Source: Candidatus Aenigmatarchaeota archaeon
Lineage (GTDB): Archaea > Aenigmatarchaeota > Aenigmatarchaeia > CG10238-14 > SCSR01
Assembly: GCA_039090665.1 (NCBI GenBank)
Contig: JAWCSL010000009.1
Coordinates: 1-32,149 of the forward strand
Reading direction: 5' to 3'
DNA length: 32,149 nt
Position numbers: made by a program. Shown here one piece after another: positions 15,001 to 18,000 of the stretch (positions are counted from its first letter, which is position 1; the number at the start of each line of letters is the position of its first letter).

Positions 15001-18000
15001 CAGATTCTAAAGCATTATCTCTTATTTGTACAGCATTTTTTGCAACTAAATAAAGAGTTAAATTAAATTCCCCATTTTTATTACCCATTTCAAATTGATG
15101 AGTCTTAGGGAAAGGTGCTCCTGCCACATAACTCTTCCTTGGAACTTTCATCGAAACTCTAGTATAAGGCCTTTCTATTCTTCTCATCGTTCTACCAGGT
15201 CTTAAAGGCATGAAATCACCAATAGATTATACACAATTTATTAAATAAAAACATAAATAAACCTTTTGGTCAAAAAATTTTTATGATTGTGGGAAGAGAT
15301 GTAATAGAAGAAATGGTAAAAAAATTCAAAATAATTCACCCTTTTAATCCCTCTTGTTTGGATGGTGATAGTTACATTTTAACTGTCAGTGAAGATGTGG
15401 AATTGAAATATTTAGAACACCAAAATGTTATAGCTCATGAAATAGTTTTTGTGCCACCTGAGTTTGTTTGTCATATGACAGCAAAGAGCAAATTCGGAAG
15501 GATGGGACTTTCTTTCTTGAATGCCGCCAAAGCACATAGTGGTTGGGTTGGAAGAATTGTTCTTGAAATTGTTAACCTGAACAATGAAAGAAAGCCTGTG
15601 ATTGTGAGAAAGGGAGAACCTTTTATGCACATAGAATTTATAAGACGTGAAGGAAAGCCTTGCCCTTATAAAGGTGAATATCAATTCCAGTATATGAGTG
15701 AAGAGGAAATTGACATGTATATGAAAATAATGCTTGAAAATTGGCCAGGAGTTTTTGATGAAGAATATCTCAAACAAGCTAAAGAAAAAGCTTTGAAAAA
15801 AATTTGATTTTATATCAAATATTTTATCCAACAGAAATTCTTAAATTAAAGATTCTTTCTTTTTTCAAATTATGTCAAATTGGCCAATTGTCGAAAAAGA
15901 AAATCTCATATTGGGAAATGAGAAATCACCATTGGCAATATGCACACTTTGGTCAAAGAAAGAAGATTTTCTTGTTTTACCAAAAGAAAATTTTTGTGTT
16001 ATAGGCAACCTCTATACAACATATGGGATAAACTCTTTAATAAAAAACTTGCTAGCAAACCCTCGAATAAAGCATCTAATAGTTTGCGGAGAAGATTTGA
16101 GTAAAACAGGAGAAGCTTTAATAAATCTGTTCAAGAATGGTTTAGATGAAAATTATAAAATAATTGGAAGCTCTGCATATATTGACAAATCTATTCCAAG
16201 AGATAAAATTGAAATTTTAAGAAAAAATGTTGAAATAATAGATCTAAGAAATAGGGAAAATGTAAGAGAAGAGATAAAGAAAATTGGTGAAAAGATTCCA
16301 ACTATTGGAGAATTTTTCATGGAACCTTTTTTTGTAAAAGAAGAGGCAAGATGGGAAGAAAATTTAACTAGTGAAGAGATTGGCTTTAGAGTAGAAGGTA
16401 GCATACCAGAAGTTTGGCTCAAAATTTTAGATTTGGTGATGAAATTTGGTGAAATTAAAGAAACCGAATATGGAATAAAACAAAAGGAAATTTTAGATGT
16501 AGTTGCGGTGATTAAAGAAGATGGGGAAATTCCAAAATGGTTTCCGATTTCGGAAGAAAATCTCCAAGAATATGTAGATAATTTTTTCAGGAAAAATAAG
16601 CCAAAAGGTGTTGACTACACTTATGGTGAAAGGCTTTTTGGCCTTGAGCTTAATTTACCATTAAAGATTAAAGAATATTTACAACCTCAAATCATGAAAG
16701 AAACAGACATAATTTTGAATCAAATTGACTTGATTGTTAAGAAACTCAAGATTAAAAAATTCACAAGAAGAGCTATAGCTGTCACATGGAGACATGAAAT
16801 AGATAGTGTTTCTGAAAATCCCCCTTGTTTAATAGAGATTGTTTGGAATGTTAAAGACGAGAAACTCCATCAAACTTGTACTTTTAGAAGCCATGATATT
16901 TGGGGAGCTTGGTTGTTCAACGCCTTTGCTTTAAGAAATTTGCAAAGAGATGTTGCAAAAAGAGTTGAAATAGAAATAGGAAACTTGATAATCTTTTCTG
17001 TATCTGCACATGTGTATGAGAACAATTGGAAAAATGCAACCGAACTAATTGAAAAATATTCCAAGAATAAAGAAATAAAATTTGAAGAAGATCCAAGAGG
17101 TTTTTTTGTCATAAAAATTGAAAATGGAGAAATAATAGTGGAGCACAAACTCAAAGATGGAAGAAAAAGCAAGTATCAGTTTAAAGGAAAAAGTGCTCAA
17201 GAATTATATAAGAAAATCCTAAATGAAGATCTTGTTTCTCGGCTAGACCATGCAGCTTATTTGGGAAGAGAACTTACAAGGGCTGAAATGGCCTTAAAGG
17301 AAGGTAAGGAATATACTCAAGAATGAAATTTTAAATACTCTTGAAATTCAATTCTTATTAGGTTTGGAGGTGAATAAATGGCTGTAGTTGTTAAATCTGC
17401 TGTCAGAAATTTACTTAAAGAAATGAGAGCAAGCGAAGATTTCTGGAAAGCACTAGATGCTGCTGTGACTGCTGAAGTTAAAAAAGCAATAGAGAGAGCA
17501 AAAGCAAATGGCAGAAAGACAGTAAGAGGTTGTGATCTTTAAATTTTTCCCTTCATTTCAAATTCGAAGGGAAACTTTTTTTTATTTTTCTTTTAAAATT
17601 AAAAATTTATTAAGTTGTGTGTGTAATTTAATTTTTAATGGTGAATTTTGTTGTTGGTATAACAGGAACTATAGGCTCTGGTAAAGAGTTGGTGAAAGAA
17701 GCTCTTGCTCGGAACTTTAGTTGTTATTCTGTTACTCTTTCTTCAGTAATCCAAGCTCAAGTAAAGAAACAAGTTGACAGAAAAACTTTACAAGATATGG
17801 GAAATGAGTTGAGAAAAAAATATGGTAATTTTATCCTTGCCAAACTTGCTACAGATTACTTGCAAAGAGATAAGGAAATGATAATAGTGGATGGAATAAG
17901 GAATCCGGGTGAAGTTGAATATTTGAGAAAAACTTTTGGAAATAAATTTTTCCTGATTGGTGTTGATGCTCCACGTGAATTGAGATGGGAAAGAATAAGA

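Follow-up and report, generated by a model that had tools for sequence, protein, structure and literature searches.

A thymidylate synthase core nested in an MtrA-like and DUF4346 module in an aenigmatarchaeon lacking the usual folate-recycling enzymes

The window analysed here is a stretch of 32,149 nucleotides from a Candidatus Aenigmatarchaeota archaeon (contig JAWCSL010000009.1, positions 1 to 32,149). An open reading frame at 15872..17326 on its forward strand starts with ATG and encodes 484 amino acids plus a stop codon, and the reading frame together with matches in Pfam and NCBIfam bears out the preliminary description of the product as a fusion of an MtrA-like domain, a ThyA core and DUF4346. 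In Pfam, MtrA covers residues 2-143 of the 484-residue protein (1.8e-19; 70.5 bits against a cut-off of 25), Thymidylat_synt (PF00303) residues 278-418 (1e-17; 64.6 bits, above the cut-off of 24.3), and PterinBD-DUF4346 (PF14251) residues 406-484 (4.7e-26; 91.8 bits against a cut-off of 29.6). The N domain (residues 1-150; 15872..16321, + strand) is of the MtrA-like Rossmann type, without the cobalt ligand, and was assigned by PF04208 (1.8e-19) and PDB 5laa (1.4e-18). It is joined by a linker without regular secondary structure (residues 151-171; 16322..16384, +; pLDDT 68-77 in the model) to a methanogen-type ThyA core (residues 172-398; 16385..17065, +), which was delimited by TIGR03283, the invariant catalytic residues and Foldseek and which contains the codon of the catalytic Cys319 at 16826-16828 (+). 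The DUF4346 domain (residues 402-484; 17075..17323, +; PF14251, 4.7e-26) consists of three strands, then two helices. An AF2 model of the 484-residue fusion built with 119 aligned sequences reaches a pLDDT of 90.4 and a pTM of 0.80; both scores are better than those of the earlier full-length model (80.5 and 0.52).

The fusion is indeed widespread, as had been claimed: 475 homologous proteins of near-equal length are found at E<=1e-5, all three domains are present in 119 of the 120 listed, and the family extends over DPANN archaea, Patescibacteria, Chloroflexi and cyanobacteria. DUF4346 as such was counted in 1060 cluster representatives. Across 119 homologues, the mean top-residue frequency is 0.57 in the N domain, 0.59 in the ThyA core and 0.66 in DUF4346, and lowest in the linker (0.41). 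The N domain is about as conserved as the catalytic core, and by these frequencies both flanking domains are under selection. No account of the fusion architecture or of DUF4346 was found in a literature search that left most subscription journals outside its reach.

A dCTP deaminase-like gene (15283..15807, +; PF22769, 5.9e-11; TIGR02274, 4.5e-15, below the cut-off) ends 64 nt upstream of the fusion gene and is likely to supply dUMP or dUTP. It adjoins a ribosomal protein L10e gene on the opposite strand (14693..15211, -; PF00252). Homologues of the deaminase gene (dcd) lie within 5 kb at 7 of 28 fusion loci, two of them identified by cluster membership. At 311 nt downstream lies a P-loop nucleotide-kinase-like gene (17638..18207, +; AAA_18, AAA_33; N-terminal part of NF041025; PRK08356), which is not a conserved neighbour of the fusion in an all-against-all BLAST of the loci; this comparison gave no recurrent fusion neighbours beyond dcd, dCMP deaminase and L10e. 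A promoter and terminator scan of 15100-18300 stayed at chance level with bacterial models, which are unsuited to archaea.

TIGR03283, the equivalog model of the short methanogen-type enzyme (M. jannaschii MJ0757 type), is matched over its entire 201 positions by residues 177-388 (1.7e-48, NCBIfam), with a score of 164.8 bits, just under the curated cut-off of 174.55. The invariance of the catalytic residues, asserted previously, holds in all 119 aligned homologues (R299, R300, P318, C319, R339, S340, D342, N350, H380 and Y382), and the Arg-Arg pair and the R-S-x-D, Asn and H-x-Y positions align to B. subtilis ThyA. The nucleophile in P318-C319 corresponds to E. coli C146, the Asn at position 350 makes ThyA enzymes choose uracil rather than cytosine, and D342 and E206, both conserved, serve pterin binding and activation in canonical ThyA. 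A Foldseek search with the fusion model places thymidylate synthases on top (4xsd_A, E 2.3e-13; TM up to 0.71, target-normalised). Alignments to canonical ThyA (Pfam, PDB) extend through the first DUF4346 hairpin to residues 418-421, where they are weak. The fusion thus shares with the short archaeal-type ThyA of TIGR03283 both the fold and the Cys, Arg-Arg, R-S-x-D, Asn and H-x-Y set. It differs in that its core is flanked by a 150-residue MtrA-like domain and an 83-residue DUF4346 domain, and in that none of the methanopterin and folate pathway genes searched for turned up in its organism.

Residues 3-144 of the fusion are homologous to the cytoplasmic MtrA homologue of PDB 5laa (1.4e-18, HMMER alignment; numbering verified on His35). 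MtrA homologues, as described in passages of PMC4915002, have a Rossmann-type fold in which His84 is the lower axial cobalt ligand and Glu54 its hydrogen-bond partner, and the nucleotide-tail pocket is contacted by Thr53, Gly57 and Asn64. The N domain shares the fold and the pocket with these proteins (PDB 5laa, 5l8x; passages of PMC4915002), the tail contacts T53, G57 and N64 being retained as T49, G52 and N59; among the 119 homologues, T/S49 occurs in 116, G52 in 117 and N59 in 116. In contrast to MtrA, the corrinoid domain of the methyl-H4MPT:CoM methyltransferase, it lacks His84 and Glu54, which have no aligned residue in the query, and its two loops that would face the corrin are shorter. 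A conserved His in this domain had already been reported missing, and the alignment analysed here agrees: the TEN motif occurs in 0 of 119 homologues and a scattered loop His in 8, with no conserved His, and the cobalt-ligand signature is likewise missing from all 20 further fusions fetched from the phylum. Instead, residues conserved in the fusion type (W27, N46, Y48, D75 and R126) line the ligand face. In one sister subfamily of fusions, residue 59 is Thr and neither the N59 nor the N46 contact is retained, an observation that was counted against a cofactor being held by this domain.

DUF4346 carries the motif DPxGFF...DHAAYLGxELxxAE...YxQ, the positions of which are conserved across 54 DUF4346 sequences. 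Modelled alone, the domain reaches a pLDDT of 94.4, and the previous finding that it has no match in the PDB was reproduced: Foldseek returned nothing at E<=0.001 (best 8esq_3, E 0.045), and the best VIA-align score over 48,161 chains was Z 6.1, below the noise level of 7-8. The best VIA-align matches (ribosomal proteins, PSRP-3, EVH1-like; Z <= 6.1) were rejected as its fold for this reason. Of 89 DUF4346 proteins scanned, 9 carry the domain on a DHPS-like pterin enzyme, which ties it to pterin chemistry; one such gene lies in a methanopterin-type cluster, adjoining a flavoprotein/4Fe-4S gene. The label PterinBD may reflect no more than co-occurrence with PF00809. Elsewhere, a standalone DUF4346 gene lies within an operon of MTHFR-like, MtrA, MtrH and core-MetE genes.

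The N and C domains form a single module, and the ThyA core is inserted between them. MtrA and DUF4346 occur together without ThyA in 28 of the 89 scanned DUF4346 proteins and at 17 of 80 loci. Four proteins keep N and C around a decayed ThyA part (P0141, P0153, L029, L035), and three N+C forms lack both the His and ThyA (L036, L037, P0161). The module outlasts the decay or loss of its ThyA part in other lineages and therefore has a function of its own. Its ancestor carried a corrinoid. One full fusion (L026) retains the His and Glu along with every ThyA catalytic residue, and a sample of 121 genomes from the phylum includes 12 that encode a split form, in which a separate MtrA+DUF4346 protein has the corrinoid signature (GH motif in 12/12; TEN-G-I/V-E in 11/12). 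The gene of this protein directly adjoins a ThyA-like gene on the same contig in 10 of the 12 genomes, of which 11 lack SHMT and 11 lack ThyX. The ThyA-like partner has K-T-N-D for R-S-H-D, Q for H380 and a conserved Cys/His insert, and keeps "TRR" in a dedicated alignment. A complex prediction for one such pair (L049) gave a score of 0.00 from small alignments and with controls not run, and counts neither for nor against an interaction.

The split system of these sister DPANN lineages thus has the same three parts as the fusion and is likewise the sole thymidylate synthase candidate, and it also lies near dcd and L10e; it differs in comprising two genes rather than one and in an N domain that keeps the corrinoid signature. 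A dcd homologue was found within 5 kb at 4 of 5 split loci (for example, L068:8111-8704, PF22769 1.1e-49, which belongs to the cluster containing the dcd genes of split loci), and the Ribosomal_L16 cluster c14 adjoins dcd in L040, L049, L068 and L077. No published description of a His-bearing MtrA domain with DUF4346 beside a ThyA-like gene was found. That N and C form one module, and that a corrinoid-type sister form exists, is an addition to the earlier interpretation. A sister module that is a genuine corrinoid-type protein and is encoded beside a ThyA-like gene opens the alternative of a corrinoid or methyl relay, which is weighed below.

The genome (620 kb, ~33% G+C) is 90.57% complete. 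The preliminary description named the fusion as its only thymidylate synthase and listed SHMT, DHFR, FolD, MTHFR, ThyX and pterin synthesis as absent. Profile searches of the genome agree on both counts: a profile containing the ThyA core matches the fusion gene alone, and no SHMT, DHFR (PF00186), ThyX, FolD C domain, DHPS/Pterin_bind, MTHFR, thymidine kinase, MtrH or HPS (TIGR03128) was detected, DHPS being the step of pterin synthesis covered. By these matches, the genome has no candidate for a thymidylate synthase other than the fusion. A canonical thymidylate kinase and SAM synthetase are encoded elsewhere. NrdJ or another ribonucleotide reductase (RNR) gave no match in the genome, possibly because of an assembly gap. 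Because HPS is absent, we rejected the idea that a reverse ribulose-monophosphate pathway supplies the one-carbon unit as formaldehyde. A 5-FTHF cyclo-ligase is encoded, as noted before; it occurs in only 3 of 29 fusion genomes and was rejected as a general partner of the fusion.

A survey of 121 genomes of the phylum Aenigmatarchaeota places these absences in context. SHMT tracks ThyX or canonical ThyA, being found in 61 of 83 such genomes, and strong DHFR matches sit beside canonical ThyA. On the other hand, in the 29 genomes that have no thymidylate synthase candidate apart from the fusion or split form, SHMT occurs in 2 and a strong DHFR match in 0; among the 18 fusion-only genomes, SHMT is missing from 17 and a strong DHFR match from all. 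ThyX is absent from 19 of 29 fusion genomes. The absence of SHMT and DHFR is therefore a pattern among these genomes rather than a quirk of a single one, and this lends support to the proposal that the added domains take the place of the normal cofactor supply and recycling. Of the earlier interpretation, the anatomy and the gene absences hold and such a stand-in role is supported (27 of 29 genomes without SHMT, 0 of 29 with a strong DHFR match), whereas the specific holding of a pterin or one-carbon unit stays at the level of a proposal. The architecture and the missing folate-recycling enzymes point to an unstudied route of one-carbon supply. NrdJ, considered as a discriminator of corrinoid users, was discarded: it exceeds the cut-off in 74 of the 121 genomes, and 16 of the 18 fusion-only genomes match it, against just 3 of the 12 with a split form; the genome analysed here does not.

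The explanation that we tentatively prefer, although at somewhat less than an even chance, is that the fusion is a working thymidylate synthase in which the module would hold a scavenged, pterin-type one-carbon cofactor. Given the fully conserved catalytic set, the core chemistry would be that of other ThyA enzymes: Cys319 would add to C6 of dUMP, the phosphate of which would be gripped by R299/R300 and R339/S340 and the uracil of which would be held by N350, and the one-carbon unit would pass to C5 from a reduced carrier of the pterin type, resembling methanopterin or folate, that lies over the nucleotide and against D342. With its cobalt ligand deleted and its ligand face rebuilt (W27, N46, Y48, D75, R126), the module may now hold the cofactor on the enzyme. 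DUF4346 may act as a lid on the pterin side; it begins where the short core ends, at the position of the folate-closing C-terminal hairpin and tail of canonical ThyA. The N domain, which keeps the ribose-phosphate tail pocket of MtrA, may clasp the far end of the cofactor or another ligand. In this way, a cell without SHMT, DHFR, FolD and pterin synthesis could make use of a cofactor that is scarce and scavenged, and substrate would flow from the upstream dCTP deaminase (dUMP) through the fusion (dTMP) to thymidylate kinase (dTDP).

Several observations count against this held-cofactor reading. Replication of a 620-kb genome at ~33% G+C requires, by a rough estimate, ~4e5 dTMP, so that a held cofactor must turn over; yet its re-reduction and one-carbon reloading are accounted for by no gene found, SHMT, FolD, MTHFR, DHFR, MtrH and HPS being absent. 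Related DPANN genomes that rely on ThyX or canonical ThyA retain SHMT; supply of charged cofactor by a host is therefore not a rule of the phylum. No pterin-binding fold or motif was recognised in the N domain or DUF4346 by Foldseek or VIA-align, and a pterin-holding role does not explain the corrinoid signature of the split sister protein.

The last point is met by a folate-free methyl relay, which we regard as unlikely. The N and C domains would form a methyl carrier, with a corrinoid on the MtrA-type domain that would be bound His-on in the split forms and His-off here. By analogy with SAM-dependent m5U/m5C methyltransferases, dUMP activated by the Cys might conceivably attack the cofactor-bound methyl group. 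No dihydropterin would be formed, and SHMT and DHFR would not be needed, which accounts directly for their absence. The carrier would have to be re-methylated by a further donor; SAM is the sole activated methyl donor seen in the genome, which encodes SAM synthetase. The fusion and split form would then constitute a third thymidylate route, independent of the folate cycle and consuming no methylene-folate, for which SAM or some other donor would in the end provide the methyl group; we give this scenario only a minor chance. It is consistent with the GH motif in 12/12 split-form proteins and the adjoining ThyA-like gene in 10/12, with the lack of SHMT and of ThyX in 11/12 of these genomes each, with L026, in which His and Glu coexist with the ThyA catalytic residues, and with the tail-pocket residues T/S49, G52 and N59 kept in the fusion. 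Cobamide is in use in the phylum (NrdJ in 74/121 genomes and 16/18 fusion-only genomes), and the standalone DUF4346 gene lies in an MTHFR-like/MtrA/MtrH/core-MetE operon. A comparable system may be found in the core methionine synthases, which are predicted, in passages of PMC7857596, to draw methyl groups from MtrA. In MesA with MtrA, biosynthetic methyl transfer would bypass methyl-folate through an MtrA-type corrinoid protein (passages of PMC7857596). In that system, which is itself a predicted link, the acceptor is a zinc-activated thiol (homocysteine), as opposed to a carbon of dUMP in the relay considered here.

Several observations speak against a methyl relay in the fusion: His84 and Glu54 are deleted and the loops shortened, the TEN motif occurs in 0/119 homologues, and the same holds in 20/20 fusions of the phylum. 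D342 and E206, which have pterin roles in canonical ThyA, are conserved. Methyl-cobamide is not known as a cofactor of any enzyme of the ThyA fold. The genome contains no recognisable methyl donor:corrinoid methyltransferase and no NrdJ/RNR match, although the latter may reflect an assembly gap, and the occurrence of DUF4346 on DHPS-like enzymes is left unaccounted for.

It is improbable that the extra domains are only structural or regulatory, serving oligomerisation, allosteric nucleotide sensing or docking, on an ordinary pterin-dependent ThyA that runs on charged cofactor exchanged with a host. DPANN archaea rely on hosts for many metabolites, and a 620-kb genome without many pathways fits such dependence; the N domain keeps the pocket that in MtrA takes up a nucleotide-like tail, as would be fitting for allosteric control, and no catalytic motif was recognised in either domain by Pfam, Foldseek or VIA-align. 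Relatives with the same lifestyle that use ThyX or canonical ThyA nevertheless keep SHMT (and DHFR). Moreover, the N and C domains are conserved like the catalytic core, outlast the decay of ThyA, and recur with corrinoid and pterin enzymes.

Very unlikely, too, is a built-in dihydropterin reductase, proposed by analogy with protozoan DHFR-TS. Both ThyA and the DHPS-like enzymes bearing DUF4346 release 7,8-dihydropterins, a strong DHFR match is found in 0/18 fusion-only genomes, and the N domain has a Rossmann-type fold (passages of PMC4915002). The bifunctional DHFR-TS of protozoa and plants (PDB 3cl9, 1qzf) likewise joins ThyA to an N-terminal alpha/beta domain on one chain and is among the Foldseek matches. 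The likeness in Foldseek and in PDB sequence matches runs through the TS half, however, and only this half superposes (TM 0.31-0.34, rmsd 20-21 A); the N domain of the fusion matches MtrA rather than DHFR, PF00186 is absent genome-wide, and a third, C-terminal domain is present. No GxGxxG-type loop follows the first strand of the N domain when the sequence is read by eye, and no flavin or NAD(P) family is matched in Pfam. In the methanopterin cluster, the flavoprotein/Fe-S gene is separate from the DHPS-like-DUF4346 gene beside it, and the one-carbon source and the corrinoid-type sister forms would remain unaccounted for.

It is highly improbable that the protein is no thymidylate synthase and instead modifies C5 of pyrimidines in some other way with its ThyA fold, for example as a hydroxymethylase or flavin-dependent hydroxylase. 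The FAD-containing dCMP hydroxylase AfhB of phage HY126 (9iqu, 9iqc; TM up to 0.71, target-normalised) and T4 dCMP hydroxymethylase are among the Foldseek matches, and cyanobacterial full-length relatives without R299/R300 lie beside deaminase and deoxyribosyltransferase-like genes, but residue 350 is Asn, as befits uracil specificity, the methanogen TS equivalog TIGR03283 is the best family, thymidylate kinase is present with no other thymidylate synthase or thymidine kinase, and the fusion and ThyX are largely alternatives in the phylum (19/29 fusion genomes without ThyX).

Thymidylate is known to be made by ThyA or by ThyX, each of which uses methylene-folate. The proteins described here constitute a large, unstudied family in which an accessory module surrounds a ThyA core. 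In these symbionts, either a scavenged pterin is retained and reused by a novel mechanism or thymidylate is made without a folate cycle. Either outcome would alter what is deduced from genomes about the DNA-precursor metabolism of ultra-small symbionts, would give a role to DUF4346 and to soluble MtrA homologues, and would bear on the unsettled cofactor of the methanogen-type ThyA.

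The ORF at positions 15872-17326 (+ strand; 484 aa, ATG start) encodes a thymidylate synthase core flanked by two further domains. Pfam assigns MtrA to residues 2-143 (1.8e-19), Thymidylat_synt to 278-418 (1e-17) and PterinBD-DUF4346 to 406-484 (4.7e-26), and the NCBIfam model of the methanogen-type thymidylate synthase (TIGR03283) spans residues 177-388 end to end (1.7e-48), with a bit score of 164.8, slightly below the curated 174.55. The coverage of TIGR03283 and the Pfam domains together place the catalytic core at about residues 172-398 between the other two domains, in line with the three-domain protein of the preliminary description. 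A near-length protein search returned 475 relatives at E<=1e-5, and 119 of the 120 listed carry all three Pfam domains (the exception, P0023 of 366 aa, is without MtrA); the fusion is widespread, as the preliminary description had it. In the alignment of 119 homologues, R299, R300, P318, C319, R339, S340, D342, N350, H380 and Y382 are invariant and line up with the catalytic residues of B. subtilis ThyA; the fusion thus has the complete ThyA catalytic set, and the invariance noted earlier holds. An AlphaFold2 model built from this alignment (pLDDT 90.4, pTM 0.80) finds thymidylate synthases as its best Foldseek matches.

A profile search of the source genome (620,606 bases in 15 contigs, 90.57% complete) gave no match for SHMT, DHFR, ThyX, the FolD C domain, DHPS/Pterin_bind, HPS, thymidine kinase, MtrH or MTHFR, which bears out the absences of SHMT, DHFR, FolD, MTHFR and ThyX reported before; 5-FTHF cyclo-ligase, an archaeal SAM synthetase and thymidylate kinase are encoded. 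The ribonucleotide reductase large subunit (PF02867) and NrdJ likewise had no match in this genome, probably owing to an assembly gap, because genomes of the same genus do carry the large subunit. The fusion is preceded, at a distance of 64 nt, by a dCTP deaminase-like gene (dcd). Of 28 fusion loci, 7 have a dcd homologue no more than 5 kb away (two of them assigned by cluster membership), as do four of five loci of a split form, in which an MtrA-DUF4346 protein is accompanied by a separate ThyA-like gene; there, as in the window, dcd adjoins an L10e gene. The window also holds a PEP synthase or PPDK-type enzyme (12355-14655, - strand; 766 aa), a DUF1512 protein (18229-19419, - strand; 396 aa), an NYN-domain protein (20157-20615, + strand; 152 aa) and a tRNA-Leu(GAG) (4171-4256, + strand). 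A dCMP deaminase accompanies the fusion at one Patescibacteria locus and lies downstream of it at four cyanobacterial loci (L030-L033, on Nostocales and Phormidiaceae contigs). The cyanobacterial proteins are full-length relatives of ~31% identity that keep the Cys, R-S-x-D, Asn and H-x-Y, with Ala/Ser in place of the R299/R300 pair. The three Nostocales loci (L030, L031, L033) have a dcd-like 282-aa gene after the relative, and a nucleoside 2-deoxyribosyltransferase-like gene (L031, L033) and DUF7469 (L030, L031) also occur; these loci may represent a different pyrimidine pathway.

Gene co-occurrence was counted on one set of 121 Aenigmatarchaeota genomes, each >=80% complete and the source genome included, in which profile searches found the full fusion in 29 and the split form in 12. 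ThyX is present in 74 of these genomes, SHMT above cut-off in 64 and a strong DHFR match (E<=1e-48) in nine. SHMT occurs in 61 of the 83 genomes with ThyX or a canonical-type ThyA and in three of the 38 with neither, an odds ratio of 32 whose significance is overstated, since the genomes are related and not independent. Where the fusion (18 genomes) or the split form (11) is the sole thymidylate synthase candidate, SHMT is found in 2 of 29, and no fusion-only genome has a strong DHFR match (weak matches in three, two of them barely above cut-off). ThyX is also present in 10 of the 29 full-fusion genomes, and nine of these ten have SHMT; 5-FTHF cyclo-ligase is found in only three of the 29. Eight of the nine strong DHFR matches lie within ~1 kb of a canonical-type ThyA, with SHMT within ~2 kb too in six genomes; in G096, which gave no ThyA match, the ninth lies near SHMT. 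At the level of gene content, therefore, the fusion/split system runs independently of the cell's own SHMT and DHFR, unlike the related genomes with ThyX or canonical ThyA. A compact cluster of canonical ThyA with DHFR and SHMT is seen in G020:C10:7623-10180 (DHFR 7623-8045, ThyA 8182-8580, SHMT 9053-10180) and in G005, G015, G023, G059 and G110, the last of which carries the three-domain fusion as well. Many ThyX matches in the phylum consist of two ThyX-like halves in one frame of 500-590 aa (e.g., G018:C4:43103-44374 and G022:C11:83543-84826), a common form that may be a tandem duplication.

The N domain matches the M. fervidus MtrA homologue 5laa at 1.4e-18. In this HMMER alignment (5laa numbering verified on His35), the cobalt ligand His84 and the Glu54 that hydrogen-bonds to it fall in gaps of the query, and both corrin-facing loops are shortened relative to 5laa. 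The TEN motif is present in none of the 119 homologues, a scattered loop His occurs in eight, and all 20 further fusions from the phylum are His-less. The cobalt ligand has been lost in the fusion, and the preliminary description was right that the domain has no conserved His. Mean top-residue frequencies among the 119 homologues are 0.57 (N domain), 0.59 (ThyA core), 0.66 (DUF4346) and 0.41 (linker), and the N domain is not in decay. Its conserved residues are W27, N46, Y48, D75 and R126; judged by where strands begin and end in the model, N46 directly follows strand 43-45, and the other four lie at or just beyond the C-terminal ends of strands. The side-chain contacts of MtrA to the cobamide nucleotide tail named in section 6 of PMC4915002 are Thr53, Gly57 and Asn64, to which T49, G52 and N59 of the fusion align; these are present in 116-117 of the 119, and in one sister fusion subfamily positions 59 and 46 are both Thr. 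In a variant of the fusion from the same family as the source genome (594-612 aa; G031:C1:21755-23416, G052, G061), a ~90-aa insert interrupts the ThyA core and the loop behind the CG motif is longer.

A search with the C domain by itself gave 1060 cluster representatives at E<=0.001. Pfam architectures were scanned for 89 of the 150 DUF4346 proteins listed (the 61 omitted were <140 aa or the known fusions P0049 and P0117): MtrA+ThyA+DUF4346 was found in 9, ThyA+DUF4346 in 15, MtrA+DUF4346 without ThyA in 28, DUF4346 with a DHPS-like part (Pterin_bind and/or DUF6513) in 9 and DUF4346 alone in 27, the remaining one being a low-complexity protein. MtrA and DUF4346 are contiguous in the proteins without ThyA, many of which retain Glu54 within 'TENxGIEK' and His84 within 'CG...GH'. 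Eighty loci of species-representative genomes were classified with our own domain profiles into 29 with all three domains in a single ORF, one with a decayed ThyA part (L035), four partial at contig edges, 17 with an MtrA-DUF4346 ORF without ThyA nearby, four with these two domains in separate ORFs, 20 with DUF4346 on long ORFs and five in which the MtrA-DUF4346 ORF is directly followed by a ThyA-like ORF (L039, L040, L049, L068, L077). From these architectures, ThyA has been inserted into a two-domain module that existed before it. Both outer domains are retained where ThyA is dead or deleted (L029, with Arg at Cys319; L035; P0141; P0153; P0161); the module therefore functions in its own right. 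A ~100-aa Cys-rich N-terminus (C-x2-C-x-C ... C-x-G-C-x2-C) precedes an MtrA domain that has the His and DUF4346 in bacterial proteins of 370-400 aa (P0174, P0188, P0197, P0245; loci L042, L044, L047, L059); an ArsR-type regulator is often upstream and two small genes of no assigned function are downstream, and the product may be an Fe-S corrinoid protein.

In the split form, the two genes are adjacent on one contig in 10 of the 12 genomes and on different contigs in two. The MtrA-DUF4346 protein has 'G-H' in all 12 and 'TEN-G-I/V-E' in 11. The ten ThyA-like partners examined keep the Pro-Cys, with 'K-T-N-D...N' replacing 'R-S-H-D...N'; 'TRR' is present in five aligned partners from named contigs and, by motif search, in 8 of 10 from the phylum sample. 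A full fusion on a Parvarchaeota contig (L026) has the His, the Glu and all ThyA catalytic residues. The corrinoid motifs of the split proteins and this fusion with the His support well the descent of the module, which is conserved, from a corrinoid protein. In five of five cases the split ThyA-like partner (L049:3763-4554, L039:2554-3372, L040:6106-6957, L068:5807-6583, L077:6034-6885) contains an invariant Cys/His-rich insert, R-H-Y-P-D-C ... P-H ... D-E-H ... G-K-C, at the position of a low-confidence loop of the fusion (about residues 260-280), and this insert could form a metal site.

The C domain, modelled alone with 54 DUF4346 sequences (pLDDT 94.4), consists of three strands followed by two helices; Foldseek found nothing in the PDB at E<=0.001, and the best match of VIA-align over 48,161 chains (Z 6.1) is below the tool's stated noise level. 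The alignments of the Pfam ThyA profile and of B. subtilis ThyA, weak at that end, reach as far as residues 418-421 and so enter the first hairpin of DUF4346, and the short TIGR03283 model stops near residue 388. DUF4346 therefore starts at the place taken in canonical ThyA by the C-terminal part, which closes over the folate. Standalone DUF4346 (112 aa) is found in a Thermoplasmata operon (L054:1658-5318; also L061, L062) with MTHFR-like, MtrA (187 aa, with the His), MtrH and core MetE (Meth_synt_2, 295 aa) genes, an arrangement that resembles a corrinoid-mediated methionine synthase pathway in which DUF4346 takes part. In Hadesarchaea (L043:1447-6551), CitG-like, DUF447, flavoprotein (with 4Fe-4S domains), DUF6513-Pterin_bind-DUF4346 and DUF1464 genes form what looks like a methanopterin biosynthesis cluster, whose flavoprotein resembles dihydromethanopterin reductase DmrX.

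What the module does in the fusion we infer. Our tentative preference is that C5 of dUMP would be methylated by the classical ThyA route with a pterin-type carrier, the module keeping a scavenged cofactor bound to the enzyme. This is favoured because D342 and E206 are both conserved, because DHPS-like pterin enzymes carry DUF4346 as well, one being encoded next to a flavoprotein/Fe-S gene in a cluster of methanopterin type, and because the ligand face of the N domain is rebuilt and not simply mutated. Its large gap is that no gene to recharge such a carrier was found in the source genome. A methyl relay through the module, the main rival, would account directly for the absent SHMT and DHFR, and fits the split and fused forms that have the His, the DUF4346 of the Thermoplasmata operon, the use of cobamide in the phylum (NrdJ in 74 of 121 genomes) and the methyl transfer from MtrA to MesA predicted in PMC7857596. 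We rate it as rather unlikely; it needs corrinoid binding without the His, some methyl donor and a chemistry that the ThyA fold is not known to perform. Somewhat less probable again is a purely structural or regulatory module; a built-in dihydropterin reductase is improbable, and a different pyrimidine modification by the enzyme hardly to be expected.

A literature search for the MtrA-like/ThyA/DUF4346 architecture found no paper, and none with the term 'DUF4346' itself; the domain combination is visible in public databases, where the protein is named 'thymidylate synthase' or 'DUF4346 domain-containing protein'. According to a 2022 comparative-genomics paper (PMC9012536), the specificity of methanogen ThyA for its cofactor has not been established. 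How the fusion obtains its one-carbon unit is a testable and potentially important question.
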